A stretch of 35,665 nt of DNA from Bacteroidia bacterium (lineage in GTDB: Bacteria; Bacteroidota; Bacteroidia; 2-12-FULL-35-15), in contig JAEUTT010000083.1 of the NCBI GenBank assembly GCA_016787165.1, positions 1 to 35,665 on the forward strand, read 5' to 3'. Within the stretch, counting starts at the first letter, position 1. Each line of letters starts with the position of its first letter. The notes below the pieces were generated by a model that worked only from the letters and a program-made list of their open reading frames with translations, was not told where the DNA came from and did no database searches. A program made the translations under genes and the position numbers. Shown here piece by piece: positions 1,800-35,665 of the stretch.

Positions 1800-1914
1800 A
1801 ACACAAGAAATGCCATTATCAGCGAGTTGAATAGCAAGTGTTAAACCTGCTATTCCTCCGCCAATAATGGCAACTTGATAAGGAATATGTTCATTTGTTT
1901 TGATGAACTTTAAT

Positions 1915-5376: not shown

Positions 5377-5417
5377 TATCCAACTTTTTTAAATCATGTA
5401 CTACTTTTATTTGAAGC

Positions 5418-6455: not shown

Positions 6456-6476
6456 TGTATAGTTGGTCTTGTTTTT

Positions 6477-7826: not shown

Positions 7827-7871
7827 ATTTAATTTGTAAATGATTGTTGTCTTAAATGGTATAATTATTAT

Positions 7872-8486
7872 TTATTCTTCTTCAATAATTTCTTTGTATT
7901 TGTTTATGAGTTTATGTCCTTTAAGTGTACAAATGCCATGTAAAAAGTGGTCGATTAATGACAGCTGAATATCAACAAGCCTATATTCTTGAGGTGGGAA
8001 TACATCTGGATTTAATCCCATTTCTACTTGTTCAATTCTCATTTTTGATAAAATTTTTGAATTAATATCAGTTCGTACAAGTCCTTCTTTTTTACCTCTT
8101 TCAATTGATGTTTCAATCACTTTTACCATACAATCATTTTTGAATGCTTTAAATTGCGCCCAAGCTTTTGGATGGTATTTTTGTAAATCATAAAAAATGG
8201 TCGGATTTACTTTTGAAAACATAGCACTAATATGTTTCATCATATTCATCACCTCTTCAATCATATTTGCTGAATCGTGCTGTATTTGTTGAAATTCACA
8301 TTCGTCTTGCTTTAATGAAATTTTCATAAGTGTTTCTACAATTTCATTTTTATCAGAGTAAAACTGATAAATTGTTTTTTTGGATATTGTTAAATGTTTG
8401 GCAATATCATCCATTGTAACACTTTTAATTCCAAACTTAAAAAACAGCTCTTCGGCACCTTTTAAAATTCTATCTTTTGTTTCCAT
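7872..8486 (-). CDS. TetR/AcrR-family transcriptional regulator (longest ORF reaches 8567; ATG at 8486 preferred)
   Basis: METKDRILKGAEELFFKFGIKSVTMDDIAKHLTISKKTIYQFY is a canonical TetR N-terminal HTH beginning at Met28 of the long ORF. A TAGTTTTG -7 box at 8520-8513 would lie inside the longer ORF. It heads the efflux operon. Confidence 0.85.
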   Translation of the reverse strand: METKDRILKGAEELFFKFGIKSVTMDDIAKHLTISKKTIYQFYSDKNEIVETLMKISLKQDECEFQQIQHDSANMIEEVMNMMKHISAMFSKVNPTIFYDLQKYHPKAWAQFKAFKNDCMVKVIETSIERGKKEGLVRTDINSKILSKMRIEQVEMGLNPDVFPPQEYRLVDIQLSLIDHFLHGICTLKGHKLINKYKEIIEEE

Positions 8487-8512
8487 TTTTTGTGTTCTAA
8501 AAAATTCGAGCA

Positions 8513-8520
8513 CAAAACTA
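8513..8520 (-). promoter_or_regulatory. candidate Bacteroidota -7 promoter box (TAnnTTTG) for the tetR/efflux operon
   Basis: Minus-strand TAGTTTTG, 27 nt upstream of the ATG at 8486. No well-spaced -33 TTTG was seen. The motif is expected by chance fairly often in AT-rich DNA. Confidence 0.3.
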
Positions 8521-8774
8521 TGGAAACATTTTTTATTTCCAACGTTTCCGTTCAAATTATTTTCCATGTATTCTGTAAGTTGTTGATAATCAAATTAAAA
8601 AAGGAAACAAAAAAGGTGCAAAAATGTTTCTTCGAGGAGTTTTGGTCTTAAAATCTAAAAACACACAGTTTGTTTTATACAATTATTTTTTTGTACTTGG
8701 CTAAAAAGGATTATTTTAGCAGACTTTTGAAAAAAACTACTAAATCAATAATAAAACTATAAAATTCAATAAAA

Positions 8775-11700: not shown

Positions 11701-12179
11701 GCACAGAAACGGATAATAATGGAGATTATAACTTTTCTAACTTGCCAAATGGCAGCTATACTGTTTATGTAGATATTCCTGGATTAGGTTTAGATTCAAC
11801 CTATACGGTTGAGATAACAGATACTACGAATAACTACCCTAATTTAGATTATGAAGTAGATACAAATTCTGTTTACCCTGTCAATCAAAATCCTAATAGT
11901 ATTTCAAATCTAGACTTTGCTAAAGCAACTAAATTTAGTGTATATCCAAATCCGTTTAAATCAGGATTAAATATCACGTATGCTTTGTCGCAAGATGCAG
12001 AAATGCGTTTAGAAATATACTCTGTATTAGGTATTAAGGTTCAATCAATTGTAAATAAAAATCAACAAGCAGGGGAATACAGATACACTTTTGATGATCA
12101 AATACAAAGTGGTGTATATTTTATAAGCCTAACCGTTGATGGAAAAACAAGCACACAACGAGTAATTAAAATAGATTAA
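8775..12179 (+). CDS. T9SS-sorted multidomain surface protein: BNR/Asp-box beta-propeller, Ig-like/SprB-type repeats, proprotein-convertase P-domain, tandem CarboxypepD_reg-like domains, T9SS C-terminal domain (CTD)
   Basis: Signal peptide MKKGLLFVSFVAIICSVSFAQ. Asp-box-like RSADGLTW, RTNNGVTW, RSTDGVSF. P-domain HTYVGDIQMWLIAPNGSSIQLY...GDWKLEMYDAAGGDIGELRGWSIRF. SprB-like GGMTPYQYLWSDG. CTD FSVYPNPFKSGLNITY...GVYFISLTVDGKTSTQRVIKID. Confidence 0.9.
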   Translation: MKKGLLFVSFVAIICSVSFAQDNWQLNSSNGIGNPYNSTINAMHSFGGHMYLGMGTDQGVVLRSANAAPGTWSEVFSEPYFESIDAINSTTEGGGYIYFSGKGFDQEVPTIYRSADGLTWAPYYRSIHRLTHIIPFKGLGSVDSIYIIEEGYDGSNIWKAAYDNNDPDNALSTWTHVLSMDTLSSYLYVVSAHVHSGKLYLGTNQGTLYTTQDGLNYTMNAGVGVGFGNFDNYEISAIGAFGGYVYAATFNYYIGSQLYRTNNGVTWDSVTTFTSHMRTTNIDVHSGELWICLETENGNGANVLRSTDGVSFTTSTNDGFGEPNQNAGQNGKTIQYGSNIFYGGRYYAFGGKGGRGSLQNEGARLYQLCVGTPPVVNLGIDQTVCQNVSLTFDAGSGNASYWWSTEDTTQTITTSNGGDIYVIVVGTNGCIASDTVNVNHLTTPSVTIVSPQMDTLVCSGTSISLLADAASGVRNPLPPIHKPTYQMISDYSYSYDTISVSGITDSAGLALYSVTIDSLVHTYVGDIQMWLIAPNGSSIQLYSQHGSGSDDIYGMELNTTSTNDLNTGTGPFTGTWMPYEPFSNLTGTANGDWKLEMYDAAGGDIGELRGWSIRFSEADNTVNYSWAPAASITSATNLAAATAQVTSSTTYTVTVSNSFGCTATAERNIFVPTINITVMDDTLCYGESTLMIAMGQNITWSETGSGTLSSTFGQTVTASPIATTIYYATDTIMGCPVIDSATVYYSPQFFATASPAQTICYSESATLSSTVSGGMTPYQYLWSDGAAFSGTNATELVAPLTTTSYTLYAFDAYNCLATDVTNITVNPSTDVFGHVTFTGGNVTNGTVVLYNHYPFFTSFDTVQTVALNANGDFHFTSVIYGDYIVKVFANNTAFPTLLPTYYGNVYLWGSASILPHGCALNDTLVITMSEQQALTGPGQLSGTVIEGPGFGRLEGDPIPGIDVKLGRNPGGQLVTSTETDNNGDYNFSNLPNGSYTVYVDIPGLGLDSTYTVEITDTTNNYPNLDYEVDTNSVYPVNQNPNSISNLDFAKATKFSVYPNPFKSGLNITYALSQDAEMRLEIYSVLGIKVQSIVNKNQQAGEYRYTFDDQIQSGVYFISLTVDGKTSTQRVIKID

Positions 12180-12184
12180 ATAAA

Positions 12185-14443
12185 ATGAAAAACAAGTCAA
12201 AACTTAATTTTACAACAAAAGCCTTCAAGGCTTTTGTTGTTTTAGGATTCATGGTTTCTGCCCTCAATACGATAGCGCAGCCATTAACAGCAGATGCAGG
12301 TCCTGATCAAGACATTTGTGATGGTACAGGCGGAGTAACCATTGGTGGCTCTCCAACAGCAACATTTGGAACCCCTCCATACACCTATTCGTGGGCTCCT
12401 GCAACAGGGTTGAGCTCTACAACAGTTGCTAATCCTGTAACGACTATTAATTTTAATATGACTTATACATTAACTGTTACTGATGCGGTTGCGGCAACAG
12501 CAACTGATGCTGTTTATATTGGCGTAACGTATCAAGCTATTGCTTATGCTGGAGGAGATATGACTATTTGTGCGGGTTCCCCTGTGCCCACATTGTCGGG
12601 CTCTATGGGTGGTTCTGCATCTTCCTTAACATGGACAACGTCTGGAACAGGAACGTTTTCAAATCCAACATCAATGGTTACAACCTATACTCCTTCTACT
12701 GCTGATGAGTTAGCCGGAAGTGTAGTTTTAACAATGACAACCAATGATCCCCCAGGGCCTTGCCCGGCAGCAACAAGTTCATTAACATTAACAATTAATC
12801 CTGTTCCTGTAGCAACCATAAGCAACGGAAATATGTTTTGCGAAGGAGCTCCAATTGCTTTTTCTTCTGCTACGGTATCTGGTGGAACATACAACTGGTC
12901 TGGGCCAAATGGATTTATTGCAAGTGTTCAAAATCCGACTATTGCTTCAAGTTCTACATTAAATACTGGGCTTTATACCTTAATTGTTTCTATAGGCTCG
13001 TGCTCCGATACAGCAGATATTAATATTACTGTTAATCCCACACCAACAGTAAATGTGTCTGCAACAACCAACCCAAGTTGCAATGGTTTTACAGACGGAA
13101 CGGCTACCGCTACGGTTGTGGGTGGTACAGCACCGTATATGTATTCATGGAGCCCTTCATCAAACACTACTGCAGTAGCTACAACCCTTTCGGCAGGAAC
13201 CTATACGGTTTATGTTACAGATGCAAATGCTTGTACAGGACAGGCAAATACAACATTAATAGATCCTTCAGCAATTACGATGAGTGTTTTTTCGCCTACA
13301 ATCTGTTTGGGTGATTCTGCAACATTAAATCCGATTGTAAATGGTGGAGTTGCACCCTATACTTATGTTTGGGATCAAGGTGGAACATTTTATTATACCC
13401 CTTCTTTAACGCTTGCTCCAACAAGCGGAACAACCTTTACGCTTTCGGTTACTGATGCCAACGGTTGTTATACATACGATTATCCAACCATAACAGTAAA
13501 TTCTTTAACAGATATTATTGGAGCTGTTTCGTATTCTGGTGGTGCACTTTCAAATGGTGGTACTGCAGTTTTATTTAATTATGAATTTACTGCAATGACT
13601 TTTGATACGGTACAAACTACACCACTTGATGCATCGGGAAATTATAATTTTTCATCTGCTCCTAACGGTTTTTATTTAATTAAAATTTTTGGTGATACTT
13701 TGATGTATCCGGGGGTTGTTCCAACTTATCATACAAGTGAATATTTATGGAATATGGCTACAATGGTTTCCCATGGCTGCACATCAACCACAACAGCTAA
13801 CATTACTATGGTAGAAGGTGTTGCCGGAGTGGGTCCCGGTATGATAAGTGGAAGCGTTTTTGAAGGTCCCGATTTTCAACGTATAGAAGGAGACCCAATA
13901 CCGGGTATTGATATTAAATTAGGCCGTAATCCTGGCGGACAATTGATTGCGAGTACTACAACTAACTCAACGGGGGCATTCAGCTTTACAAATCTTCCTA
14001 TTAATAATCCGGGGGAATATTATACAGTATATGTAGATATTCCGGGAATGGATAGAGACTCAACATACAATAAGGCAGTAACAGCAAGTGATTTTGTTTT
14101 TACACAATTAGATCACAAAGTAGATAGTAATTCGGTGTATCCAATTTATCCTGTTACAACTTCTATTAGCAATGTTAATATAGCAAAACAAAACAAATTT
14201 AATGTATATCCAAACCCTTTTAAAGAAAACATAACAGTATCATATACTTTAAATGCTAATGCTGAGGTGAAATTAGATGTTTATAATGTTTTGGGCGAAA
14301 GAGTTCAAAGTATTGTAAATACAAACCAGCAAGCGGGAGAATATACCTATGGTACAATGATAAATTTTAATGCAGGAATTTATTTTGTTAGTCTTAGAGT
14401 TAACGGTGTAGAAACAACATACAAAGTTGTTAAATTAGAATAA
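12185..14443 (+). CDS. T9SS-sorted surface protein with SprB-type Ig-like repeats and the shared CarboxypepD_reg-like + CTD tail
   Basis: Signal peptide ending ALNTIAQ. SprB-repeat signatures CNGFTDGTATATVVGGTAPYMYSWSPS, PPYTYSWAPATG, GVAPYTYVWDQGG. CTD FNVYPNPFKENITVSY...GIYFVSLRVNGVETTYKVVKLE. Only 5 nt after the previous stop. Confidence 0.9.
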   Translation: MKNKSKLNFTTKAFKAFVVLGFMVSALNTIAQPLTADAGPDQDICDGTGGVTIGGSPTATFGTPPYTYSWAPATGLSSTTVANPVTTINFNMTYTLTVTDAVAATATDAVYIGVTYQAIAYAGGDMTICAGSPVPTLSGSMGGSASSLTWTTSGTGTFSNPTSMVTTYTPSTADELAGSVVLTMTTNDPPGPCPAATSSLTLTINPVPVATISNGNMFCEGAPIAFSSATVSGGTYNWSGPNGFIASVQNPTIASSSTLNTGLYTLIVSIGSCSDTADINITVNPTPTVNVSATTNPSCNGFTDGTATATVVGGTAPYMYSWSPSSNTTAVATTLSAGTYTVYVTDANACTGQANTTLIDPSAITMSVFSPTICLGDSATLNPIVNGGVAPYTYVWDQGGTFYYTPSLTLAPTSGTTFTLSVTDANGCYTYDYPTITVNSLTDIIGAVSYSGGALSNGGTAVLFNYEFTAMTFDTVQTTPLDASGNYNFSSAPNGFYLIKIFGDTLMYPGVVPTYHTSEYLWNMATMVSHGCTSTTTANITMVEGVAGVGPGMISGSVFEGPDFQRIEGDPIPGIDIKLGRNPGGQLIASTTTNSTGAFSFTNLPINNPGEYYTVYVDIPGMDRDSTYNKAVTASDFVFTQLDHKVDSNSVYPIYPVTTSISNVNIAKQNKFNVYPNPFKENITVSYTLNANAEVKLDVYNVLGERVQSIVNTNQQAGEYTYGTMINFNAGIYFVSLRVNGVETTYKVVKLE

Positions 14444-16198
14444 ATGAAAAAAAGGGTATTTTTTTGTATTAATAAAAAAACAAAAAAAGGCATTGTTTTT
14501 TTGTTTTTTTTGTTTTTCTTTTTTGATTCAAATGCACAATTGGTAATTGATTCAACTAAATCTGTAACAACGCTAATCCAAAATATGTTTGTTGGTTCTG
14601 GGGTTACGGTATTTAATGTTACACATTCGGGTCCACCAAATTCTATTGCAGCTTTTGGTGGAACAACCAACCTGGGTGTTTCATCAGGAATATTAATGAG
14701 TACAGGAAGTGTATCAGTTGCTTATGGGCCAAACTTTTCTGGATCTTCTACAGTTGGAGCAACAGGAATAGTTTCTTTAGATACTGATTTAACTTCAATC
14801 GCATCGGGGACACTGTATGATGCAAATATTTTAGAGTTTGATTTTATAGCTATTTCTGATACTGTGATATTTAATTATGTTTTTGCTTCAGAAGAATATC
14901 CTGAATATGTACTTAGTGGTTTTAATGATGTTTTTGGTTTTTTTGTTTCCGGAATAAATCCTTCAGGAGGAAATTATATTGCACAAAATTTTGCCTTGGT
15001 TCCCGGAACTTCCAGTCCGGTATCAATAAACACAATAAATGCATCTGTAAATAGTGCTTATTTTTTTGATAATATAACTCCGCCAGGTTCTACAATACAA
15101 TACGATGGATTTACAACTCCACTTATTGCAAAATTTGCTGTACAATGCGGAACCGTTTATCATATAAAAATTGCTATTACTGATGTTTTTGACTCCACAT
15201 GGGATTCGGGATTGTTTTTTGAAGAGTTTAGTTTTGCAAGCATAGGAACCCCTGCGCCTTTGGTTTCCGGAATTGTTTCAAACTCTTTAGGTCCAATTAC
15301 AGACGGCTCTGTTGTTATATTTAGTAATGGTTCTTATGACTCAAAGTTCGATACGGTTAAAGTGGCTCCAATAGATGTTAATGGGTATTATGAATTTATT
15401 TCTATTCCTCCAGGAAATTATATTGTAAAAGCATTTCCCAATAAACTAATATATCCAAATGCTATAACTACATACTATGGCGATGATTTTGTTTGGGATA
15501 CAGCATTGATAATTGGTCAGACTTGTGGAATATCATATGTTTATGACATTACAATTATTGAAGGAGAAGTTTTGGTTGGCCCAGGTGGCTTATCAGGAAA
15601 AATTACGGAAGGGAATAATTTTACAAGATTAGAAGGAGATCCCATTCCTGGTATTGATGTTAAGTTAGGTAGAAATCCGGGAGGACAAATAATTTCAAGT
15701 ACTCAAACGGATGCAAGCGGAAATTATACATTTTTAAATGTTCCCTATAACGATGGAGCGGTAAACGGAATTAGTTACACTGTTTATGTTGATATGCCGG
15801 GTTTAGGAAGGGATTCTAGTTATGTTATTGTTTTAAATTCATCCTCTCCTAATGCAGATAGTTTGAATTATTTGGCAGACTCTACAACTATTTATGTGAA
15901 TTCAAATCCTCAAACAGTAATAAGTAATTATAGTTTAGCAAAACAAAACAAATTTAATGTATATCCAAACCCTTTTAAAGAAAACATAACAGTATCATAT
16001 TCTTTAAATGCTAATGCTGAGGTGAAATTAGAGGTGTACAATGTATTGGGCGAAAAAGTTCAAAGTATTGTAAATACAAATCAACAAGCAGGAGAGTATA
16101 ATTACAATACAATAAATAATTTAAACTCGGGTGTGTATTTTGTGAGTCTTTCGGTAAATGGCAAAATAAGCACACAACGAATCATAAAGATGGATTAA
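14444..16198 (+). CDS. T9SS-sorted choice-of-anchor-L domain protein with the shared tail
   Basis: N-terminal NMFVGSGVTVFNVTHSG...GILMSTGS...YDANILEFDFIAISDTVIFNYVFASEEYPEYVLSGFNDVFGFFVSG matches the choice-of-anchor L pattern. CTD FNVYPNPFKENITVSY...GVYFVSLSVNGKISTQRIIKMD. The ATG directly abuts the previous TAA (TAAATG at 14441-14446). Confidence 0.9.
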   Translation: MKKRVFFCINKKTKKGIVFLFFLFFFFDSNAQLVIDSTKSVTTLIQNMFVGSGVTVFNVTHSGPPNSIAAFGGTTNLGVSSGILMSTGSVSVAYGPNFSGSSTVGATGIVSLDTDLTSIASGTLYDANILEFDFIAISDTVIFNYVFASEEYPEYVLSGFNDVFGFFVSGINPSGGNYIAQNFALVPGTSSPVSINTINASVNSAYFFDNITPPGSTIQYDGFTTPLIAKFAVQCGTVYHIKIAITDVFDSTWDSGLFFEEFSFASIGTPAPLVSGIVSNSLGPITDGSVVIFSNGSYDSKFDTVKVAPIDVNGYYEFISIPPGNYIVKAFPNKLIYPNAITTYYGDDFVWDTALIIGQTCGISYVYDITIIEGEVLVGPGGLSGKITEGNNFTRLEGDPIPGIDVKLGRNPGGQIISSTQTDASGNYTFLNVPYNDGAVNGISYTVYVDMPGLGRDSSYVIVLNSSSPNADSLNYLADSTTIYVNSNPQTVISNYSLAKQNKFNVYPNPFKENITVSYSLNANAEVKLEVYNVLGEKVQSIVNTNQQAGEYNYNTINNLNSGVYFVSLSVNGKISTQRIIKMD

Positions 16199-25989: not shown

Positions 25990-27789
25990 ATGGCTAAAGA
26001 AACCTTATTAGAAATTAAAAATTTAGTTACTGAATTTCGTACCGAAGACGATACGGTAAAAGCAGTAAACGATATATCATTCACTTTATCAAAAGGTGAA
26101 ACAATTGGTATTGTGGGAGAATCGGGTTCGGGTAAGTCGGTAACATCACTTTCGGTGATGCGCTTAATCCCTAACCCTCCAGGAAAAATTACCGGAGGCG
26201 AAATTATTTATCACTCTAAAACAAAAGGACCTATTGACATTGTAAAGCTTTCTGAAAAGGAAATGCGTGAGTTACGTGGAAACGAAATTGCCATGATTTT
26301 TCAAGAGCCAATGACTTCTTTAAATCCTGTTTATACTTGTGGTGATCAGGTGATGGAAGCAATTTTGTTACATCAAAAATGTACAAAAAAGCAAGCCAAA
26401 GAAAAAACAATAGCACTCTTTAATGAAGTTCAGCTTCCTCGTCCAGAAAACATTTTTGATAGCTATCCTCATCAAATTTCGGGCGGACAAAAACAACGTG
26501 TAATGATTGCGATGGCAATGAGCTGTCAGCCAAACATATTAATTGCCGATGAGCCAACTACAGCTTTGGATGTTACTGTTCAAGCAACTATTTTAGATTT
26601 GATGCTAAAACTTCAGCGTGAGCATGAAATGGGAATTATGTTTATCACCCACGATTTAGGTGTAATTGCTGAATTAGCAGATAAAGTAGTGGTAATGTAT
26701 AAAGGTAAAATTGTAGAACAAGGAAGTGTGTTAGAAATATTTTCTAATCCACAACATCCTTATACAAAAGGACTTTTGGCTTGTCGCCCACCACTGAACA
26801 AACGTTTACATTGGCTACCTACTGTTGCTGACTTTATGAAAACGAGTGAAACGGGTGAGATGATTGAAAGTAATCAATCCGTTGCTCAGGTTACCGAAAA
26901 ACTAGTGGTTACTGCGACAGAAAGAGCAGAGGCACATAAAAAATTATATGCGAAAGAACCTGTTCTACAAATCAAAAATTTAAAAACATATTTCCCAATT
27001 AAAAAAGGGATGTTTGGCAAAGCAAAAGAGTTTGTAAAAGCGGTAGATGATGTAAGTTTTGATGTATATCCTGGCGAAACGCTTGGATTGGTAGGAGAGT
27101 CGGGGTGCGGTAAAACAACTTTAGGAAGAACTGTTTTAAGATTGATTGAACCAACAAGTGGTGAAGTTATTTTTAATGGAAAAAATATTACAAGTCTTGG
27201 AACCAATGAAATGAGAGAACTTAGAAAAGACATTCAAATTATTTTTCAAGATCCATATTCTTCTTTAAATCCTCGTATTACTATCGGACAAGCCATTATG
27301 GAGCCAATGCAGGTACATGGGATTTTAGAAAATGATAAAGCGAGAAAAGAAAGAGTAGTAGAATTGTTACAGCGTGTAAATATGAATGAAAGTCATTTTT
27401 ACCGTTATCCACATGAATTTTCAGGCGGACAACGTCAACGTATTTGCATTGCACGCGCACTTGCCTTAAAACCAAAATTTATTATTTGTGATGAATCAGT
27501 TTCAGCTTTGGATGTATCTGTTCAAGCACAAGTATTAAATCTTTTAAACGAATTAAAAAGAGAGTTTGATTTTACCTACATTTTTATTTCTCATGATTTA
27601 TCCGTTGTAAAATTTATGAGCGATAGAATGGTGGTGATGAATAAAGGAAAAGTAGAAGAAATGGGTGATGCTGATTCAATTTACAATAATCCACAAACAG
27701 AATACACGAAAAAATTAATTAGTGCTATTCCTAAAGGACAATTAGAAGATATTAAAGCATCTATTGAAAAGAAAAAAATGTTTGTGTAA
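25990..27789 (+). CDS. ABC transporter ATP-binding protein with two fused Dpp/Opp-type ATPase domains (YejF/GsiA-like)
   Basis: Two complete cassettes: Walker A GESGSGKS and GESGCGKT, signatures SGGQKQR and SGGQRQR, Walker [13 protein letters not shown] and [12 protein letters not shown]. Oligopeptide-type C-terminal extension HPYTKGLL. Confidence 0.9.
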
Positions 27790-27798
27790 ACAGGCAAC

Positions 27799-27879
27799 TG
27801 TCATTTTGAGTGTAACGTAGTGAAACGAGAAATCTTTCAGTTTATAAGTATGAGATTTCTCCTTACAGTCGAAATGACA
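27799..27879. repeat. nested palindromic intergenic element (copy A), termini TGTCATTT(T/C)GA
   Basis: Terminal inverted repeats TGTCATTTTGAG (27799-27810) / GTCGAAATGACA (27868-27879). Inner perfect 9-bp stem GAGAAATCT (27827-27835) / AGATTTCTC (27853-27861). Confidence 0.75.
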
Positions 27880-27887
27880 AAAACAAC

Positions 27888-27962
27888 TGTCATTTCGAAA
27901 GAAACGAAGTGTAGTGAGAAATCTCACAATTGAGGAGATTTCTCCTCGCAGTCGAAATGATA
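27888..27962. repeat. nested palindromic intergenic element (copy B), tandem to copy A
   Basis: Termini TGTCATTTCGAA (27888-27899) / GTCGAAATGATA (27951-27962). Inner perfect 10-bp stem GAGAAATCTC (27916-27925) / GAGATTTCTC (27935-27944). Both copies are preceded by CAACTGTCATTT. Confidence 0.75.
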
Positions 27963-28002
27963 AATAAGCTAAAGTAACACATTAAGCCTAAGAGCTAAAA
28001 AT

Positions 28003-29835
28003 ATGTTTTCCATTAAAAAAATTTCTCTTCCTTCTATTTCTATTTTAATTATAGCAATTACCTGTTTGCTGATTGATTTTGATTTAAAATTATGGGAAAA
28101 GCAAGACAGAGTAATTGAACACGATGTACATTGGTACTATTCCTATTTGCCTTCTCAATTTATTTATGATGATATAAAACAAGAAAAAAGCGATTATCGC
28201 TTTGGAGATAATTATTATTTATTTTGGCCATTATTTACCGAAGATGGCAAAAAAGTAAATAAAACAACAATGGGATTATCCATTATGTATGCTCCTTTCT
28301 TTTTTGTAGCTCATGCGTATACAACTTATACAGAACACTATCCTGCCAATGGATTTTCAGAACCATATAAATTGTTTTTATTGTTCAGTGCTATTTTTTA
28401 TTTAATTATCGGTTTAGATTTTATAAGAAAAATATTACAGCACTATCAATTTTCTGATAAGGTAATTGCAATTACATTGTTTTTAATTGGGATGGGAACC
28501 AATTTGCTTTGCTACTCTTCTCAATCGGCAACTATGTCGCATGCTTTTAATTTTTGTTTGTTTGCTGTTTTCTTTTACTACACTATTCAATGGTATGCTA
28601 AATCAAGTGTAAAGCATACAATAATACTTGGATTAACTCTTGGACTTATTTCCTTAATTCGTCCTTCAAATGCATTGATTGTTTTGTTTTTTGCATTATA
28701 TGGAATAGGTTCTCTTGCAGATTTTAAAGAACGAATAGTGTTTGCGAAAGAAAAATGGCTTATGATTTTATTGATGGCAATAATGAGTTTATTGGTGTGG
28801 GTTCCACAGTTTATGTACTGGAAAATTGCTACCGGACATTATTTATTTTATTCTTATACTGATGAACGTTTTTATTTTAATGACCCACATATTTTAGAAG
28901 GATTATTTAGTTTTCGAAAAGGATGGCTGGTGTATACTCCTATTATGACCTTTGCATTGCTTGGTTTGTTTTTAAATAACGAAGCTGTTAAAAAACACAG
29001 AATCGCCATCATTAGTTTTATGGCAATTAACATTTATATCATTTTTTCGTGGTGGTGTTGGTGGTATGGAGGAACTTATGGGCAGCGAAGCATGATAGAA
29101 AGTTATGTTTTATTGGCATTGCCATTTGCATCATTTATTCAAATGGTGTTGGATAAAAAAATAATTGTAAAGATTTTATTTTTTAGTAGTTGTTTGTTTT
29201 TTGTATGGTTGAATATTTTTCAAACATATCAGTTTGAGCGCCACTCACTACATTATGAAGGAATGACTAAAGAACTTTATTTTAAGCAGTTTGGAAAATT
29301 AGAAAAGATTGAAAACTTTGAATCCTATCTTCATTATCCAAACTATGATGAAGCCAGACGCGTAAATAAAGCGTTATTGGTTAAGGAAAACAAAGAAGAG
29401 CAATCTATTGAAAACATTCCTTATGTGTTACCCGATAAAAAAATACAATCACGCAAACAAATAAATTTAATAGCAAACAACAAAAAGTTTGTTTGTGCAG
29501 ATGGTGGGCTGAATTATGTTATAATAGCCGACAAGGATAATGCCAGTACTTGGGAGCAGTTTGAGTTAATTGAATTTGAAGATGGCACTTCCGTTTTAAT
29601 TGCTTATAACAATTGCTTTATTTCAGCAGAGCTTAACAGTAAAAATGAATTAACCGCAACACGTAAAAACGCTTGGGATTGGGAAACATTTATAGTTGAA
29701 AAACAAAAAAACAACACTGTTGCTTTAAAGGCATCAAACGGAAAGTATGTATGTGTAGATAAAAAAACGAATTTGCTTTTTGCTACTTCCGATAAAATAG
29801 AAGAAAACACATTGTTTTCTTTAACCATTAAATAA
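28003..29835 (+). CDS. polytopic membrane protein, GT-C-like (ArnT/PMT-type glycosyltransferase-like), with C-terminal triple-repeat beta-trefoil (fascin-like) module
   Basis: About 12 hydrophobic helices. The first loop carries acidic/aromatic IEHDVHWYYSYLPSQFIYDD, as in GT-C enzymes; the family call is tentative. The C-terminal 125 aa (29458-29832) form three ~40-aa repeats: KKFVCADGG..IIADKDNASTWEQFELI / NNCFISAEL..LTATRKNAWDWETFIVE / NGKYVCVDKKTNLLFATSDKIEENTLFSLT. Confidence 0.7.
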   Translation: MFSIKKISLPSISILIIAITCLLIDFDLKLWEKQDRVIEHDVHWYYSYLPSQFIYDDIKQEKSDYRFGDNYYLFWPLFTEDGKKVNKTTMGLSIMYAPFFFVAHAYTTYTEHYPANGFSEPYKLFLLFSAIFYLIIGLDFIRKILQHYQFSDKVIAITLFLIGMGTNLLCYSSQSATMSHAFNFCLFAVFFYYTIQWYAKSSVKHTIILGLTLGLISLIRPSNALIVLFFALYGIGSLADFKERIVFAKEKWLMILLMAIMSLLVWVPQFMYWKIATGHYLFYSYTDERFYFNDPHILEGLFSFRKGWLVYTPIMTFALLGLFLNNEAVKKHRIAIISFMAINIYIIFSWWCWWYGGTYGQRSMIESYVLLALPFASFIQMVLDKKIIVKILFFSSCLFFVWLNIFQTYQFERHSLHYEGMTKELYFKQFGKLEKIENFESYLHYPNYDEARRVNKALLVKENKEEQSIENIPYVLPDKKIQSRKQINLIANNKKFVCADGGLNYVIIADKDNASTWEQFELIEFEDGTSVLIAYNNCFISAELNSKNELTATRKNAWDWETFIVEKQKNNTVALKASNGKYVCVDKKTNLLFATSDKIEENTLFSLTIK

Positions 29836-29841
29836 AAGTAA

Positions 29842-31254
29842 ATGTTATTTAGTAGCACTCTTTTTTTAATTTATTTTTTGCCAATATTTTTTACGCTTTA
29901 TTTTGTTTTGCCTAAAGCGGTTAAAAATTATTTTATTGTTTCTGCAAGCATACTTTTTTATGCATGGGGAGCGCCTTCTTTTGTTTTTGTTTTGTTGTCA
30001 ACTGTTGTTGTGAATTTTACTTTTGCACATCTAATTTACAATAGAACAAATAAAATAAAAAAAATATTTCTTGTTGTTGCTGTAGTCTTCAATTTAGCGT
30101 TTTTATTATACTTTAAGTATGCTAATTTTTTCATTGATAATTTTAATATTCTCCTTTCATCATTTGGAATTGAGGCCGTTTCAGTAGCAAAAATTATTCT
30201 ACCTATAGGTATTTCTTTTTTTACTTTCCACCAGCTTAGTTTCATTATTGATATTTATAGAGGTGTAAAACCCCCAATGAGAAACATTTTAGATTATGCA
30301 TTGTATATTCTTATTTTTCCTCAACTAATTGCTGGTCCAATTATCCGCTATCATGAAATTTCCGACCAAATAGAAGGGAGAAACAAAGCATTTAATGTAG
30401 ATCAAGTGTTATTAGGGTTTTTAAGATTTTCGATAGGCTTAGCTAAAAAAGTGTTAATTGCAAATGTTTTAGGAAAGGAAGCAGACAAAATTTTTGATTT
30501 GCCTGTTGAGCAACTTGATTTTGCCATGTCTTGGTTGGGTGCAATAACATATACATTTCAAATTTATTTTGATTTTTCTGGTTATTCGGATATGGCTATT
30601 GGCTTAGCTAAGATGATGGGTTTTACTTTCCCTGAAAATTTTAACAACCCATATATTGCACAGAGTATAACAGATTTTTGGAGGAGATGGCATATTTCAC
30701 TTAGTCGTTGGATGCGAGATTATTTATATATTCCACTTGGTGGCAATAAAGTTTCTGGCTTAAGGCTCTATTTTAATTTATGGATTGTGTTTTTAATTTC
30801 GGGGTTTTGGCATGGTGCCGAATGGACATTTATTTTGTGGGGCGCATATCACGGCTTTTTTCTTGCAATAGAAAGACTTTTTCTTTCTAAGATTTTAGAA
30901 AAAACAACTGTTTTTATTCGGCTTATATATAGTTTTACAATTGTTATTCTTGGCTGGGTTTTATTCAGAGCTACAACTATGGATCAAGCATTTTTATTCA
31001 TTAAAAAAATGTTTTCATTTTCATCTTTTTATGAATATGAATATTCGAATCAATTAATTGTTGTACTATTACTTGCATTTGTTTTTTCATTTGCACCATT
31101 GTTATACAAAAAAGATGTCAGTCAAAATTCAGGAGTAGCGCTTACACTAAAAAGCTATTCTTTAAATGTTGTAATAATTGTTTTGTTAATGATAATGTCT
31201 GTAAGTTCAATTACCTCAAGTGATTTTAACCCTTTCATATATTTCAAGTTTTAA
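29842..31254 (+). CDS. MBOAT-family membrane O-acyltransferase (AlgI/DltB/PatA-like)
   Basis: Multi-TM protein with MBOAT signatures FHQLSFIIDIYRG, FWRRWHISLSRWMRDYLYIPLGGN and SGFWHGAEW (conserved His). Confidence 0.9.
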   Translation: MLFSSTLFLIYFLPIFFTLYFVLPKAVKNYFIVSASILFYAWGAPSFVFVLLSTVVVNFTFAHLIYNRTNKIKKIFLVVAVVFNLAFLLYFKYANFFIDNFNILLSSFGIEAVSVAKIILPIGISFFTFHQLSFIIDIYRGVKPPMRNILDYALYILIFPQLIAGPIIRYHEISDQIEGRNKAFNVDQVLLGFLRFSIGLAKKVLIANVLGKEADKIFDLPVEQLDFAMSWLGAITYTFQIYFDFSGYSDMAIGLAKMMGFTFPENFNNPYIAQSITDFWRRWHISLSRWMRDYLYIPLGGNKVSGLRLYFNLWIVFLISGFWHGAEWTFILWGAYHGFFLAIERLFLSKILEKTTVFIRLIYSFTIVILGWVLFRATTMDQAFLFIKKMFSFSSFYEYEYSNQLIVVLLLAFVFSFAPLLYKKDVSQNSGVALTLKSYSLNVVIIVLLMIMSVSSITSSDFNPFIYFKF

Positions 31255-31260
31255 AAATAG

Positions 31261-32913
31261 GTGCAAACAAAAATTAAATACATCCTTTTTATTTTGCTTA
31301 TGGTATTGCTTTTTTTACCAATGATTCAGCAGTACACACAATATTTTACCGAAACATCCTTACAAGGAGCCTTTGTTCCTCCACCAAAACCTGAATATAC
31401 TTTTGAAAAAGTACAATCCTTTCAGTATCAAAAAGAGATTGAAGATTATCTGAATTATAATTTTGGATTCAGGCCATTTTTTGTGAAATTAAAGAACACG
31501 TGGGAATATTTGTTTTTTAAGCAAATAAATGTGGCTGACCAAATAGAAGGTAAAAATGGATACATCTATAGTTTGGGTTCTACAGAGAGAACATTCGGAC
31601 ATTATTACAATGGACAGGAGAACAACGCTAATACTGTATTTAAAATTAATTTATTAAGGAATGAAATAGAAAAAAATGGCGGAACGCTGTTTGTTGTTAT
31701 TGCACCATCTAAAGAGTCTATTTATCCTGAATATTTACCTGAAAAATATCAAAATACAAATACAGTTTTGTCCGACTACCATGATTTTATATCAGAGTAC
31801 AATAAATGGAATATTCCATATCTTGATTTATATATGCAATTTAAAAATTATAAATTAAACACATCAATTCCTTTATTTACAAAAACGGGTTTTCATTGGT
31901 CAACATATGCAACCACTTTTGTTCAAGATTCAATTTGTAGAAAACTAGAGCGTCAATTATCTATAACTTTACCAAAGTTTGAGCAGGTTGGAGTTGAAAT
32001 TTCAGATACTGCTCGAGAGGCGGATGATGATTTTGAAGAACCAATGAATTTATTGTTTAGTTTGAATTCTGGCAAATATATTTATCCAATATTTAAATTA
32101 TTACCTTCAAAGAAAGAAACTAAAAAACCGAAAGTAATTATTATTGGCGACAGTTTTTTTTGGCAAGTTAAAAACCTGAGAGTGCTTAAATCTTTACTAT
32201 CGGAGGAGTCGAGATTTTGGTATTATTTTTCTAAATCGTTTCCTTTAGGCGATATTGCAGGGGGTGAGCTGAATAAGCAAGATGCGATGAAAGAGTTGCT
32301 AGACGCAGATGCTGTAATTTTACTTGGATCAATGGGGACATTTGATAATTTTCCATACGGAGTATCTGATTATATGTATAGTAATTTGTATGATGAAAGC
32401 AGTATTAAATCAATAAAAGAAAAGTTGCGGGGCGATTATTTAACTCATAACAAGGATAACAAGGATAAAAAGGAAAAACAGAAAACAGAAATTGAATTAA
32501 CGATAGAGGCACATCAACTTTATGGAAACAGAGAAGTAGTAAAGTTAAGAGCTAATAATAATATGTTTGTGTGTGCAGATGCGGCCAATCAAAAAATTGT
32601 GTCTGCAGATAAACCTATTGCTAGCCTTTGGGAAACATTTTCTATAATAAATTTTAAGGATGGAACATCGGCTATTCTTTCTTTCGAAAATAAATTTCTT
32701 TCGGCAGAAATTGATACAGATAAAAAACTTATAGCAAATAGAGATAATCTTTGGGATTGGGAAACATTTATAGTTGAAAAACAAAAAAACAACACTGTTG
32801 CTTTAAAGGCATCAAACGGAAAGTATGTAAGTGTAGATAGAAAAACAAATCAACTCTTTGCTACTTCCGATGCTGTTGGTGAAAACGAAGTTTTTGAAAT
32901 AATTCCTTTTTAA
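31261..32913 (+). CDS. AlgJ/AlgX-type SGNH-like O-acyltransferase partner with C-terminal beta-trefoil (fascin-like) module
   Basis: GTG start and a single N-terminal TM helix. LFVVIAPSKESIYPEYLPEKY, TGFHWS (the position of the D-x-H-W motif) and IIIGDSFFW are AlgJ/AlgX-like blocks. It directly follows the MBOAT gene. The tail at 32536-32910 is paralogous to 29458-29832. Confidence 0.75.
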   Translation: MQTKIKYILFILLMVLLFLPMIQQYTQYFTETSLQGAFVPPPKPEYTFEKVQSFQYQKEIEDYLNYNFGFRPFFVKLKNTWEYLFFKQINVADQIEGKNGYIYSLGSTERTFGHYYNGQENNANTVFKINLLRNEIEKNGGTLFVVIAPSKESIYPEYLPEKYQNTNTVLSDYHDFISEYNKWNIPYLDLYMQFKNYKLNTSIPLFTKTGFHWSTYATTFVQDSICRKLERQLSITLPKFEQVGVEISDTAREADDDFEEPMNLLFSLNSGKYIYPIFKLLPSKKETKKPKVIIIGDSFFWQVKNLRVLKSLLSEESRFWYYFSKSFPLGDIAGGELNKQDAMKELLDADAVILLGSMGTFDNFPYGVSDYMYSNLYDESSIKSIKEKLRGDYLTHNKDNKDKKEKQKTEIELTIEAHQLYGNREVVKLRANNNMFVCADAANQKIVSADKPIASLWETFSIINFKDGTSAILSFENKFLSAEIDTDKKLIANRDNLWDWETFIVEKQKNNTVALKASNGKYVSVDRKTNQLFATSDAVGENEVFEIIPF

Positions 32914-34409
32914 AATTTTAATTTATTTAAATTAATGTTCCCAATATTCATTGTTGGAATTTTATGAGTATTTGTTTTTGCTGTATCTGGTTTAAGTTCG
33001 CCTCTTACTCTTGATTTATATGTAGCCGAAGCCATCCAATGATAAAAAGGGAAGGTGCCTAGTAATTCAAAACTACCATCTTGTTTTGAAATAGTATGAT
33101 AAGAGCTCGACCACCATTCATTCCATGCAAGCACTAGTCCTCCTTCAATTGGATTTCCCTTTTCATCAATTAGTTTTCCTATTATTCTGCATTTATCGCC
33201 ATTGCTATAATTGTAGTAATTATCAAAACAAATACATTCCTCTTTCTTTTTAGAGCTATTAAAGCTTTGAAAAACTTCGGCTACCGGCTTAATACTTCCT
33301 TTTACTGGAATCATTTTTTCTCCAACAGAAGTTTCGCCATTCCAATTTAAAACACCCATAAAATTTGCATGAAATAATTTCCAATCAACATCTTTATATT
33401 GCCACCAAGAATATCCGGCAGCTCCACAATTATAAGCTTGATTTATTGTTTTTATTGCAAATTGTTTTTGACTTTCATAACTTATAGAATCATTGTCAGC
33501 AGAAATTGCTGTTTCTCCCACAATCCATGGTTTTTTAATGTATTTTCCGTACCAGTAAAATTCATTTCTAACCTGTTCTGGTTCATATTCATAAGGATGT
33601 AAAGAGATAAAATCTACATCTAATACATTAGGATCCCATTCAAAAATTTCTCTAATTCCAGCCAGACCAATTGTTGTTAATTGGTAAGGGGCAATGTCTT
33701 TCACTATTTTATTCCATCGTTTAACTGTTTGATGAACATATTCTTTATCCCTTTCTTCTAAATCGAAATAAAGTGGCTCATTAAAAAAGTCATAGGCAAG
33801 GATTGATTTTTCATTTTTAAATTTAGTTACAAGTTTTTTTAAGTGTTCTTCTGTTGTTTGAACATCCACAAGCATTCGAGTTAAAAAAATCATTTTGAGT
33901 CCAGCGCTGTCTGCAATTGAAAACAGCTCAGACAAAGCGTTGAAATATTTTGTGTAATTTTCTTCATTCCATAACATGATGGTGCTGTCTTTTTCATTTC
34001 TAACTTTAACACCAAATGAAATGTTTTTTGTTTGTTCATTTTCAATGTTTATTTCCCCAATTCTAACAATCCGAATCGTATTAAAACCCATTTTTTTAAT
34101 GAGAGCCATTTCTGATTTTAACTCCATTAATGAAGAATCTTTGCTTAAAAAGCGATGTTTCCCATTTGGTGTATAGCCTTCGTATGAACTAGCCCATACA
34201 TCGGTTTGATTAGCTTGCATTGTTATTACACAATTTATAGCTATGGGATAAAAAGCAGAATCATTAATATAAAATGAATTGTTTTTTAGATAAGGGAAAT
34301 TTTTTTTAGTAATTTCTGGATTATTGTTTTTGTCGTTGTTGTTAACTAAAAGCAAAAATAGGAGCGGAATAAGGGTAATTACTATGAATATAGATAAATA
34401 TTTTTTCAT
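32910..34409 (-). CDS. glycoside hydrolase family 5 (clan GH-A) enzyme with C-terminal CarboxypepD_reg-like domain, membrane-anchored or secreted
   Basis: N-terminal hydrophobic anchor MKKYLSIFIVITLIPLLFLLL. Acid/base motif AYDFFNEP and nucleophile motif PWIVGETA. Tail CRIIGKLIDEKGNPIEGGLVLAWN...QDGSFEL. The start overlaps the upstream stop (ATGA). Confidence 0.8.
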   Translation of the reverse strand: MKKYLSIFIVITLIPLLFLLLVNNNDKNNNPEITKKNFPYLKNNSFYINDSAFYPIAINCVITMQANQTDVWASSYEGYTPNGKHRFLSKDSSLMELKSEMALIKKMGFNTIRIVRIGEINIENEQTKNISFGVKVRNEKDSTIMLWNEENYTKYFNALSELFSIADSAGLKMIFLTRMLVDVQTTEEHLKKLVTKFKNEKSILAYDFFNEPLYFDLEERDKEYVHQTVKRWNKIVKDIAPYQLTTIGLAGIREIFEWDPNVLDVDFISLHPYEYEPEQVRNEFYWYGKYIKKPWIVGETAISADNDSISYESQKQFAIKTINQAYNCGAAGYSWWQYKDVDWKLFHANFMGVLNWNGETSVGEKMIPVKGSIKPVAEVFQSFNSSKKKEECICFDNYYNYSNGDKCRIIGKLIDEKGNPIEGGLVLAWNEWWSSSYHTISKQDGSFELLGTFPFYHWMASATYKSRVRGELKPDTAKTNTHKIPTMNIGNINLNKLKF

Positions 34410-35665
34410 TTTTCTTTTATAATTACTTCAAACTCTTCCCATAAGTCAGCAGATTCTCTATCTGCAATGAGAATTCCATTTTCGTTTCGATTTGCAAAAA
34501 CATACTTGTTGTTTGTTGATTTTAAAGTCACTATTTTTTCTGTTTTATAAATTAAATTAAATGTCTCCCACTCATATGGATTCTCCCTATTTGCAATAAG
34601 AATATTGTTTTTGTTTCGATCTGCGCAAACAATTTTTTTGTTTAATGTTTGAAGGTAAATCTCACCTCGTTTTAACGTATTAACCTCAAATACGGTTGCA
34701 TCTTCTTTTTTTTCAGCCGAAGCAAACAATTCGTTTGTTTGAACATTCACGTTAACAAATTTCCCATTAGAATTTTTTAAATATACCTTTGTTCCGTTTG
34801 CAAAATCATTGAACAGAAAAAGAATAGAATCGTTTTTATAAAATTCAATATTTAAATCATCAACAAAACAATCTTTAAATCCAAAATAGTATAGGCTAAA
34901 TATAATTTCTTTTTCTGAAAAGTCATGAGGTATTGTTGCATTAAAAGAAATAGTTTTCCATCCATCTTTATGGATTTCGGTAATGCTTTCCGACTCTTTT
35001 TTAAATAGGTTAGATGATTTATCAGAAATTGTTATACCAACAGGCCTGTCTGTTGAAAAACATTTAACATTAACCTTGAAAGCATCACCTGGTTTTACCG
35101 AAAATGTTGAATAACAAGCATATGCTCCGGGTGGAATTTTAACAGAGTAATTTCCTGAAAAGCAATTTTTTGTTGAAATTAGCTCAGTATTATATAGTTT
35201 ATAATTATTTTCTTTCGGAATGAAATATGTTTTATCCGCAGAAATTGTTTCGAAATCAAAAAACCAGTTTTCTTTTTCTCCATATCTAGGTTTTATCTTA
35301 TTTTTATTTATTGTTAATAAATAAAAAGATTCTCCTGTCTGTTCGTTATATTTTAATAATTTAACACTTTTAATACAAAATTCATACCCACGAATAAATT
35401 TATTAATTATTTCTTTAGATTTTTCTCTGTCTTTTTTGCTGAAATAAAATAAGACTTGTTTGTGAGCTTGCAAAAATTCCAACGGAGTAATTTTAAAATC
35501 CCACCAATTGAGTATGTTTTCATTTCGATGAAGGTCATAAAAAAAGGAATTTGGGTATAATTTTTTTAAAACATAATTAGAATTATGAAAATATCTTCCG
35601 CCATATGTAGATCCAAAACGCAAGGCCGATTCTTGAAAACAGGAAGCTTCGTACCCTGATGTAAT
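34406..35665 (-). CDS. 5'-partial protein: unknown N-terminal region, CBM4/9-like jelly-roll, permuted beta-trefoil (fascin-like) module
   Basis: The frame stays open from the listed TTG (35623) to the window edge. The middle region NWFFDFE...GNYSVKIPPGAYACYSTFSVKPGDAFKVNVK...DGWKTISFNATIP...CFVDDLNIEF has a CBM_4_9-like pattern. The C-terminal 128 aa (34409-34792) form three trefoil-type repeats. Confidence 0.7.
   Translation of the reverse strand: MTSGYEASCFQESALRFGSTYGGRYFHNSNYVLKKLYPNSFFYDLHRNENILNWWDFKITPLEFLQAHKQVLFYFSKKDREKSKEIINKFIRGYEFCIKSVKLLKYNEQTGESFYLLTINKNKIKPRYGEKENWFFDFETISADKTYFIPKENNYKLYNTELISTKNCFSGNYSVKIPPGAYACYSTFSVKPGDAFKVNVKCFSTDRPVGITISDKSSNLFKKESESITEIHKDGWKTISFNATIPHDFSEKEIIFSLYYFGFKDCFVDDLNIEFYKNDSILFLFNDFANGTKVYLKNSNGKFVNVNVQTNELFASAEKKEDATVFEVNTLKRGEIYLQTLNKKIVCADRNKNNILIANRENPYEWETFNLIYKTEKIVTLKSTNNKYVFANRNENGILIADRESADLWEEFEVIIKEK

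Follow-up and report, generated by a model that had tools for sequence, protein, structure and literature searches.

The stretch of DNA analysed here, referred to as the window, is 35,665 nucleotides (nt) long and comes from Bacteroidia bacterium (contig JAEUTT010000083.1 of assembly GCA_016787165.1). Its last genes (28003-35665), together with genes just past the window end, form a locus that is conserved in Bacteroidota. We propose, with a probability of roughly 0.55, that the proteins encoded here build an envelope glycan and O-acetylate it at the periplasmic face of the inner membrane, and that C-terminal carbohydrate-binding modules (CBM) keep the enzymes on this polymer. Four modules of family CBM92 are found in the locus, on four different carriers: two GT-C-like membrane proteins (GTC1 and GTC2), an AlgX-like protein and a lipoprotein.

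Organisation of the locus

Five open reading frames (ORFs) were confirmed, by an ORF check of the window, at the coordinates given for them in an earlier reading of the sequence (the original prediction). The last ORF runs off the window end and the rest of the gene was read on the source contig, L001, where coordinates equal the window coordinates minus 18002. The genes of the locus are as follows:

28003-29835, plus strand: GTC1, 610 amino acids (aa), polytopic GT-C-like membrane protein with a C-terminal CBM92 tail
29842-31254, plus strand: MBOAT protein, 470 aa, O-acyltransferase family
31261-32913, plus strand: AlgX/AlgJ-like SGNH protein, 550 aa, GTG start, N-terminal signal anchor, CBM92 tail
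32910-34409, minus strand: clan GH-A (GH5-like) hydrolase, 499 aa
34406-35665, minus strand: C-terminal 419 aa of GTC2, whose N-terminal half lies beyond the window end
L001 18936-19418, minus operon: stand-alone CBM92, 160 aa, lipoprotein-type signal (…FFIAC)
L001 19439-20158, minus operon: GT2, 239 aa; with the lipoprotein gene, about 1.3-2.5 kb beyond the window end

The arrangement in two convergent operons was confirmed. The plus-strand genes are separated by 6-nt gaps (29835/29842 and 31254/31261), and the overlap in ATGA, from which translational coupling had been predicted on the minus strand, is present at 34406-34409. The operons meet at 32910-32913, where the stop codons of the AlgX-like and GH-A genes overlap in TTAA; in related loci, a gap of at least 47 nt or other genes are found at this place. 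A promoter/terminator scan, which returned less than expected from shuffles, detected no terminator-like site at the convergent junction, and neither Rfam families nor tRNAs were found in the window.

Two parts of the original prediction were altered by the source contig. The last ORF as listed in the window (ORF5, 34406-35623, minus strand) had been read as a free-standing, glycanase-associated CBM-like protein. Its frame is open to the window end, with no upstream stop, and the full gene (L001 16404-18905) encodes 833 aa in the following order: a polytopic membrane domain of ~420 aa with at least 9-10 hydrophobic segments, a CBM4_9-like beta-sandwich (34895-35176, minus strand; PF02018, weak match, E 0.014-0.05) and the CBM92 tail. 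The third tail carrier is the C-terminal half of this second polytopic GT-C-like membrane protein, GTC2. Furthermore, the minus operon extends past the window with the stand-alone CBM92 lipoprotein and a GT2 polyprenyl-phosphate-sugar synthase. The locus had been pictured as one for glycan modification; the GT2 gene and the fourth CBM92 just past the window edge point instead to assembly driven by a lipid-linked donor.

CBM92 modules in the C-terminal tails

All three tails in the window passed the Pfam gathering score of DUF7910 (PF25490; 51.5, 49.7 and 35.1 bits, cut-off 35), so that the sharing of one module by three proteins, as originally predicted, is not a matter of chance. FRG1 and Fascin were also matched by all three. 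In the module list below, W marks each repeat that carries a WExF motif:

29443-29832, plus strand: CBM92 module 1, GTC1 residues 481-610; W/W/-; DUF7910 1.4e-13; phmmer against 7ZOH/7ZOI 1e-6 to 1e-8
32536-32910, plus strand: CBM92 module 2, AlgX-like tail; W/W/-; DUF7910 5.3e-13; Fascin 2.5e-7
34409-34792, minus strand: CBM92 module 3, GTC2 tail; -/W/W; DUF7910 1.7e-8; 7ZOH 7.5e-7

In phmmer searches of the PDB, the tails matched only 7ZOH/7ZOI and their relatives (E about 1e-8 to 1.2e-5); these entries are CpCBM92A and CpCBM92B of Chitinophaga pinensis. With a profile of 30 GTC1 homologues the CBM92 match improved to 8.9e-14. GTC1 residues 481-609 were modelled by AlphaFold (AF2) as a trefoil of 12 strands, with a predicted local distance difference test score (pLDDT) of about 90. 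This model was superposed by Foldseek on 7ZON/7ZOI (TMt 0.90, root mean square deviation 2.0 Å), and fascin trefoils also superposed. The fascin/FRG1-type beta-trefoil that had been predicted for the tails was thus borne out by Pfam, AF2 and Foldseek. On sequence and model likeness the tails are assigned to CBM92, formerly the bacterial fascin-like domain and DUF7910 in Pfam. The shared module itself is not new, CBM92 having been established in 2022-2024.

CBM92 is a beta-trefoil of three subdomains, each of which ends in WExF; Trp, Glu and a nearby Arg make up three sugar sites (PMC11039641). Polymers containing beta-1,6-glucan were bound by twelve characterised members (Hao et al., 2024, PMC11039641), and beta-1,3-glucan or carrageenan by members described earlier (PMC11039641). 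In an HMMER alignment, WEQF/WETF and the upstream Arg of the tail fall exactly on the CpCBM92 sugar-site residues. WExF had been expected in each of the three repeats. Only two of three carry it in every module: the sequences per repeat are WEQF/WETF/NTLF in GTC1, WETF/WETF/NEVF in the AlgX-like protein and ATVF/WETF/WEEF in GTC2 (ORF5). Natural CBM92 modules without one or two of the Trp still bind, more weakly (PMC11039641). Likeness to proven glucan-binding modules, in sequence and in the AF2 model, suggests that the tails in the window bind carbohydrate.

The tails of GTC1 and of the AlgX-like protein are 57% identical, and each is 29% identical to the GTC2 tail. The idea of one shared tail therefore stood as regards the CBM92 module and not as regards its kind, since two classes exist: W/W/- (GTC1, AlgX) and -/W/W (GTC2). 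This split recurs in most related loci, where class W/W/- is carried by GTC1, AlgX and one more membrane family, and class -/W/W by GTC2, the lipoprotein and another membrane family. Greater likeness of tails within a locus than of the same carrier across loci was looked for and was not found (mean 0.329 vs 0.334); the two-class picture, with likeness inside each class, was adopted in its place.

Predicted membrane topology and GT-C-like assignment of GTC1

GTC1 was predicted to have about 11 helices, from hydropathy and from an AF2 model of the whole protein (pLDDT 80, predicted TM-score 0.71). One side of the membrane carries the N-terminal KK together with the K/R-rich loops 232-252, 325-333 and 384-386, which would leave the loop with the motif RVIEHD and the tail on the other side, in the periplasm. 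By the positive-inside rule, the tail and the first loop are accordingly predicted to be periplasmic. The extracytoplasmic tail of the protein encoded from 28003, which the original prediction had named as a check, was borne out as a prediction by AF2 topology and hydropathy, and a cytoplasmic location of the tails was rejected on the same GTC1 model and hydropathy topology. The motif is located as follows:

28108-28125, plus strand: RVIEHD, in the first predicted periplasmic loop of GTC1, just after the first transmembrane helix; candidate GT-C catalytic acidic motif

In a 30-sequence alignment R36, V37 and E39 were invariant and D41 nearly so, a pattern in keeping with the acidic loop in which GT-C enzymes have their catalytic residues. 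GTC1 gave a weak match (9e-12) to NF047440, a putative glycosyltransferase, and one of 30 GTC1 homologues (P0108) matched PMT_2 at 4e-6. When GTC1 was compared by hhalign with a PMT_2-positive family from related loci, a probability of 95% was obtained over 305 columns. The homology of GTC1 to GT-C enzymes thus appears remote but consistent. Its membrane family has no Pfam model and comprises 2,495 representatives (50% identity clusters, E<=1e-30). Overall, the original GT-C-like, MBOAT, AlgX-like and GH-A assignments stand as family-level or remote homology.

The GT2 and the lipoprotein beyond the window

The GT2 protein matched PF00535 (1.2e-34) and carries a QDADLE motif. Its best solved relatives were the dolichol-phosphate mannose synthase (DPMS) 5MLZ (2e-14), GtrB 5EKP (1.5e-13) and ArnC (7.5e-12), and full-length NCBIfam matches were obtained to AglJ, ArnC and PpgS; it is without C-terminal transmembrane helices. 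On these matches it is assigned as a polyprenyl-phosphate-sugar synthase, the enzyme type that supplies the donors of GT-C enzymes. In the stand-alone CBM92 protein the lipoprotein signal is followed by an acidic stretch (DEE), a combination that we take to resemble the Bacteroidota surface-export signal. The locus borders on a gene for a stand-alone GIY-YIG nuclease domain of 105 aa (L001 20535-20852), which adjoins the GT2 gene on its far side.

The MBOAT/AlgX-like pair and the clan GH-A hydrolase

The motifs of the remaining enzymes are located as follows:

30688-30702, plus strand: WHISL His motif of the MBOAT protein, residues 283-287
33774-33782, minus strand: NEP acid/base of the GH-A protein; N210, E211 and P212 invariant
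33507-33518, minus strand: GET nucleophile of the GH-A protein; G298, E299 and T300 invariant

The MBOAT protein matched PF03062 (1.1e-37) and the DltB model (1.5e-47, under the cut-off of that model). The AlgX-like protein matched PF16822 (9.6e-12) and aligns with AlgJ (4O8V) across the THW motif; His213 (GFHWS) and Ser298 (IGDSF) are conserved in all seven locus homologues. Fusions of PF16822 with PF25490 were found in about 65 cluster representatives, annotated as "AlgX-related" or "DUF7910 domain-containing".

The GH-A protein consists of a signal anchor, a (beta/alpha)8 barrel and a C-terminal beta-sandwich (AF2, pLDDT 88). In Foldseek, its model was closest to a GH157 laminarinase (1.5e-13), followed by GH5 mannanases, a GH158 laminarinase and GH2 (to 1e-9). 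The protein itself gave no GH5 or Cellulase match in Pfam or NCBIfam, so that its assignment rests on its homologues (in which PF00150 is present and which are annotated as cellulase family), its fold and its motifs. The hydrolase of the original prediction is thus solidly a member of clan GH-A by barrel, motifs and homologues, and its placement in GH5 is uncertain.

Comparison across related loci

With the GTC1 alignment, 80 loci were retrieved from GTDB genomes, and neighbourhoods were counted over 81 loci. Nearly all retrieved loci are labelled as Bacteroidota metagenome-assembled genomes (MAGs), assigned for example to Vicingus serpentipes, Flavobacteriales and Chitinophagales; a few records have other taxonomic labels. 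A GT2 gene was present within 10 kb of the GTC1 homologue in 47/81 loci, encoding in 24 of them a protein 66-87% identical to that of the window's locus, and in several distant loci it directly adjoins the GT-C gene. The GH-A protein was found in 19 loci. MBOAT with a CBM92-tailed AlgX occurs in L002 (two copies), L003, L006 and L026, and in tail-less form in L055. In L026 and L003 the whole gene order is preserved, convergent orientation included (41-69% amino-acid identity). By these sequence comparisons, GT2, GT-C and GH-A recur across Bacteroidota MAGs, and the MBOAT/AlgX pair is an accessory part.

Conserved linkage in related genomes, which the original prediction had named as a check, was found, and coincidental adjacency of the genes was rejected on that ground. 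Homologues without the module had been named there as a sign of such coincidence: the linkage is conserved, whereas many homologues are tail-less or have a different CBM-like tail. Among the best 150 of the 2,495 GTC1-family representatives, about half are tail-less, at least 33 have a CBM4_9-like tail, which is the same module as in the middle of GTC2, and 12 have CBM92. Since tails are present, absent or exchanged in this family, the C-terminal module is regarded as an exchangeable accessory, and such sequence exchange fits a targeting role.

At the position of the tailed membrane protein in L012 (1.4e-19), L013 and L016, a PMT_2/PMT protein with a CBM92 tail is found; further polytopic proteins of related loci are CBM92-tailed as well, and up to four or five GT-C-like transferases are encoded in related genomes. 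A Wzy_C membrane protein is encoded near GT-C/GH-A genes in some related loci (L012 16539-18155, L013 18242-19849, L004 9215-10894 and L006 20632-21798), and an LPG_synthase_TM flippase-like gene recurs in about eight related loci only. Wzy_C (O-antigen ligase/polymerase-like) and LPG_synthase_TM are possible ligase and flippase partners that are absent from the window's locus.

Gene conversion between tails

DNA alignment of the tails revealed the following pair:

29673-29751, plus strand: gene-conversion tract in the GTC1 tail, 79 nt identical to 32751-32829, with flanks about 60% identical
32751-32829, plus strand: partner copy in the AlgX tail

The longest shared run was 79 nt, against a maximum of 11 nt in codon shuffles. 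The orthologue P0002, which is 86% identical, differs across the tract, and the conversion is therefore taken to be recent. The long tract occurs in the window's genome only: the longest runs were 30 nt in L002 and 20 nt in L004 and L006, and other pairs were at background. Gene conversion as a general feature of these loci was thus not borne out, the runs elsewhere being short or at background.

Proposed mechanism and alternative explanations

In the proposed mechanism, the soluble GT2 (DPMS/GtrB/ArnC type) would load a hexose onto polyprenyl phosphate, from which GTC1 and GTC2 would transfer it to an acceptor glycan on the periplasmic side. The AlgX/AlgJ-like SGNH protein would O-acetylate the same glycan with an acyl group that MBOAT hands to it across the membrane, and the membrane-anchored GH-A protein may trim or release the polymer, as hydrolases do in other exopolysaccharide operons. 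Through their WExF sites, the CBM92 trefoils of GTC1, GTC2, the AlgX-like protein and the lipoprotein would bind the glycan, so that each enzyme stays with its acceptor or product; perhaps the polymer presents two states or epitopes, each read by one tail class. The AlgX-like protein, the GH-A protein and the lipoprotein all begin with an anchor or a signal sequence. The original prediction had named a surface polymer as the target; the carriers are inner-membrane enzymes, so that the target would be reached in the periplasm and not on the cell surface.

A more specific version of this mechanism can be advanced only tentatively: a GT-C-driven periplasmic pathway, not recognised before, by which uncultured Bacteroidota would make an envelope polymer of beta-glucan type, possibly like osmoregulated periplasmic glucans, in which all steps are lectin-tethered. 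Several GT-C paralogues would elongate or branch the polymer, MBOAT/AlgX would O-acetylate it, the GH157/158-like hydrolase would trim it and the lipoprotein would anchor it. Evolution of the two CBM92 classes and the CBM4_9-like module would go hand in hand with that of the polymer, in part through gene conversion inside the locus.

Several observations weigh against lectin-held glycan assembly. When the full GTC1 model was searched with Foldseek, the best 50 matches were all to the trefoil and none to the membrane domain, and a PDB profile search with the GTC1 alignment likewise returned trefoils only. The membrane domain of GTC2 reached only 82% in hhalign against the same PMT_2-positive family, which is weak. 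The tails are 22-26% identical to CpCBM92A/B, under the at least 37% quoted within the published set, and one Trp site has been lost in every module. Nor is the tail essential, many GTC1-family homologues being without any. In the AlgX-like proteins, the Asp of DxH is Gly in five of seven members, including that of the window (TGFHWS vs RTDTHW in AlgJ). Finally, the window's locus has no flippase gene, and its surroundings show no sign of a polymer synthase or exporter.

The same enzymes could serve protein O-glycosylation, with PMT_2-like GT-C proteins putting hexose on Ser/Thr of periplasmic or surface proteins, trefoils acting like MIR domains in recognising glycosylated or unfolded acceptors, and MBOAT/AlgX acetylating the protein-linked glycan. 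PMT_2 and PMT matches on CBM92-tailed paralogues in related loci agree with this, as do the Dol-P-Man synthase as best solved relative of the GT2, the likeness of the GH-A model to GH5 mannanases and also mannosidases, and the beta-trefoil MIR domain of protein O-mannosyltransferases (PMTs; PMC7759382). We nevertheless consider it unlikely: characterised CBM92 modules bind glucans and not peptides, MIR is located in a loop and not at the C-terminus, AlgX-type acetyltransferases are known to work on polysaccharides, and several GT-C paralogues with an endo-type GH-A protein and a multivalent lipoprotein CBM suit a polymer better. Slightly more doubtful still is a role of the trefoils as protein-protein assembly modules like fascin and FRG1, docking the enzymes together or to a scaffold. 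Fold and Pfam matches include fascin and FRG1 equally, and the lost Trp site and the identity of about 25% to proven CBM92 would be in keeping with it. At two sites per module, however, Trp and Glu of WExF and the flanking Arg are kept in alignment with crystallographic sugar sites, and one or two Trp sites suffice for glucan binding in natural CBM92 (PMC11039641); the swapping of the tail for a CBM4_9-like module in the same family also suggests selection for carbohydrate binding.

Targets outside the cell are considered improbable. Nearly all described CBM92 modules are on secreted glycoside hydrolases (GH) or polysaccharide lyases (PL) that act against foreign cell walls, the GH-A protein resembles laminarinases of GH157 and GH158, and the CBM92 lipoprotein could be surface-exposed; a locus of this kind might capture, modify or degrade environmental polysaccharide such as fungal or algal beta-glucans. 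Yet the GT-C-like and MBOAT proteins are integral biosynthetic enzymes of the inner membrane, the most conserved partner is the lipid-sugar synthase GT2, the GH-A protein has a membrane anchor and not a secretion tag, and neither SusC/SusD genes nor sorting domains of the type IX secretion system (T9SS) are found in the locus or on its proteins, respectively. Least probable of all, in our estimate, is that the tails share no target and were spread by local shuffling or gene conversion, being neutral or independent, with an adjacency that is merely historical. The conversion tract does show sequence moving between tails, many homologues are tail-less, and MBOAT/AlgX is present in only about 6/81 loci. 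Against this, gene order and tail classes are kept at 40-65% amino-acid identity across several MAG lineages, binding-site residues are conserved, and four modules on four carriers in one locus are hard to call neutral.

Neighbouring features of the window

Between an ATP-binding cassette (ABC) ATPase gene and GTC1 (27790-27975), two tandem copies of a palindromic element of ~75 nt were found, with outer arms TGTCATTTYGA / TCGAAATGAYA and inner arms GAGAAATCT / AGATTTCTC. The region folds at -60.3 kcal/mol (z = -6.55); no Rfam match to the element and no further copy in the window were found. Possible roles are those of a terminator, a regulatory RNA or a repetitive extragenic element. The ATPase gene itself (25990-27789; double-ABC, ABC_tran x2 and oligo_HPY) lies directly upstream of GTC1, and homologues are present in 14/81 related loci, which may reflect a functional link or simply the synteny of close relatives.

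Further upstream, 8775-16198 holds three tandem T9SS cargo genes (Por_Secre_tail, CarboxypepD_reg/SdrD_B, SprB repeat, P-domain) with a G+C content of 0.36-0.40 vs about 0.31 elsewhere. A resistance-nodulation-division (RND) efflux operon (OEP, HlyD-type adaptor, AcrB) at 762-8567, beside a minus-strand gene for a TetR-family regulator, is ordinary context.

Significance and comparison with known systems

No described system organised in this way was known to the reader who made the original prediction, and none was found in the searchable literature, where searches returned no account of this locus or of CBM92 on biosynthetic membrane enzymes. Published modules are "in almost every case" on GH or PL, and transferases and membrane proteins are never mentioned (PMC11039641). 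The presence of CBM92 on biosynthetic, membrane-embedded enzymes widens the use of a family previously defined on degradative ones, and predicts a self-made ligand in Bacteroidota envelopes, plausibly one that contains beta-glucan. The large GTC1 family shows modular swapping of predicted periplasmic CBM tails. If the proposed assembly is correct, the locus would show glycan assembly guided by lectins occurring naturally in bacteria, with parallels in the PMT MIR and GalNAc-transferase lectin domains. It also gives a tractable hypothesis about an envelope glycan of Bacteroidota that are abundant in the environment.

The tails resemble CpCBM92A/B (7ZOH, 7ZOI, 7ZON) in being beta-trefoils of about 125 aa with three subdomains and an upstream Arg, in a family enriched in Bacteroidota. 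Described CBM92 proteins are often T9SS-secreted, whereas here the carriers are GT-C-like membrane proteins, an AlgX-type acetyltransferase and a lipoprotein; the modules have only two Trp sites each and about 25% identity to CpCBM92.

The pairing of MBOAT with a periplasmic SGNH-like protein of the AlgX/AlgJ family is that of alginate O-acetylation (AlgI/AlgJ/AlgF/AlgX), WssH/WssI and PatA/PatB. AlgX itself has a C-terminal carbohydrate-binding module that holds the polymer. In the window's AlgX-like protein, by contrast, the module is a CBM92 trefoil and the Asp of DxH is replaced, and the partners are GT-C enzymes and a lipid-sugar synthase, with no Alg8/44 or cellulose synthase nearby.

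In actinobacteria, the GT2 enzyme Ppm1 makes the polyprenyl-phosphate sugar for the GT-C enzymes MptA/B/C, EmbA/B/C and AftD, which build lipomannan and arabinan. Emb and AftD carry periplasmic CBM-like domains, and several GT-C paralogues extend the polymer outside the cytoplasm. That system belongs to another phylum and has other GT-C families and another CBM type; the window's locus is from a diderm and includes an acetylation module and a GH-A protein. Periplasmic decoration of an envelope glycan by a GT-C enzyme, paired with a GT2 polyprenyl-phosphate glycosyltransferase, is also known from O-antigen glucosylation by GtrA/GtrB/Gtr(type) and from lipid A modification by ArnC/ArnT. These differ from the window's locus, which has no GtrA-type flippase gene, a GT2 without C-terminal transmembrane helices and multiple GT-C paralogues, and they lack the CBM tails and the hydrolase.

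Glycosyltransferases fused to a non-cytoplasmic beta-trefoil are represented in eukaryotes by PMTs with MIR domains (PMC7759382) and by polypeptide N-acetylgalactosaminyltransferases (ppGalNAc-transferases) with a ricin-type lectin domain. In both, the lectin-type domain is thought to guide the choice of acceptor, and PMTs are GT-C enzymes that use Dol-P-sugar. They differ in that MIR is placed in a loop, the trefoil is of another family and the acceptors are proteins; in the window's locus the trefoil is a C-terminal CBM92 and is common to enzymes of the same locus that are not glycosyltransferases. By analogy, the locus would work like a combination of the lipid-sugar and GT-C pairing of Gtr/Arn, the acetylation of AlgI/J/X and the guidance of transferases by lectins.

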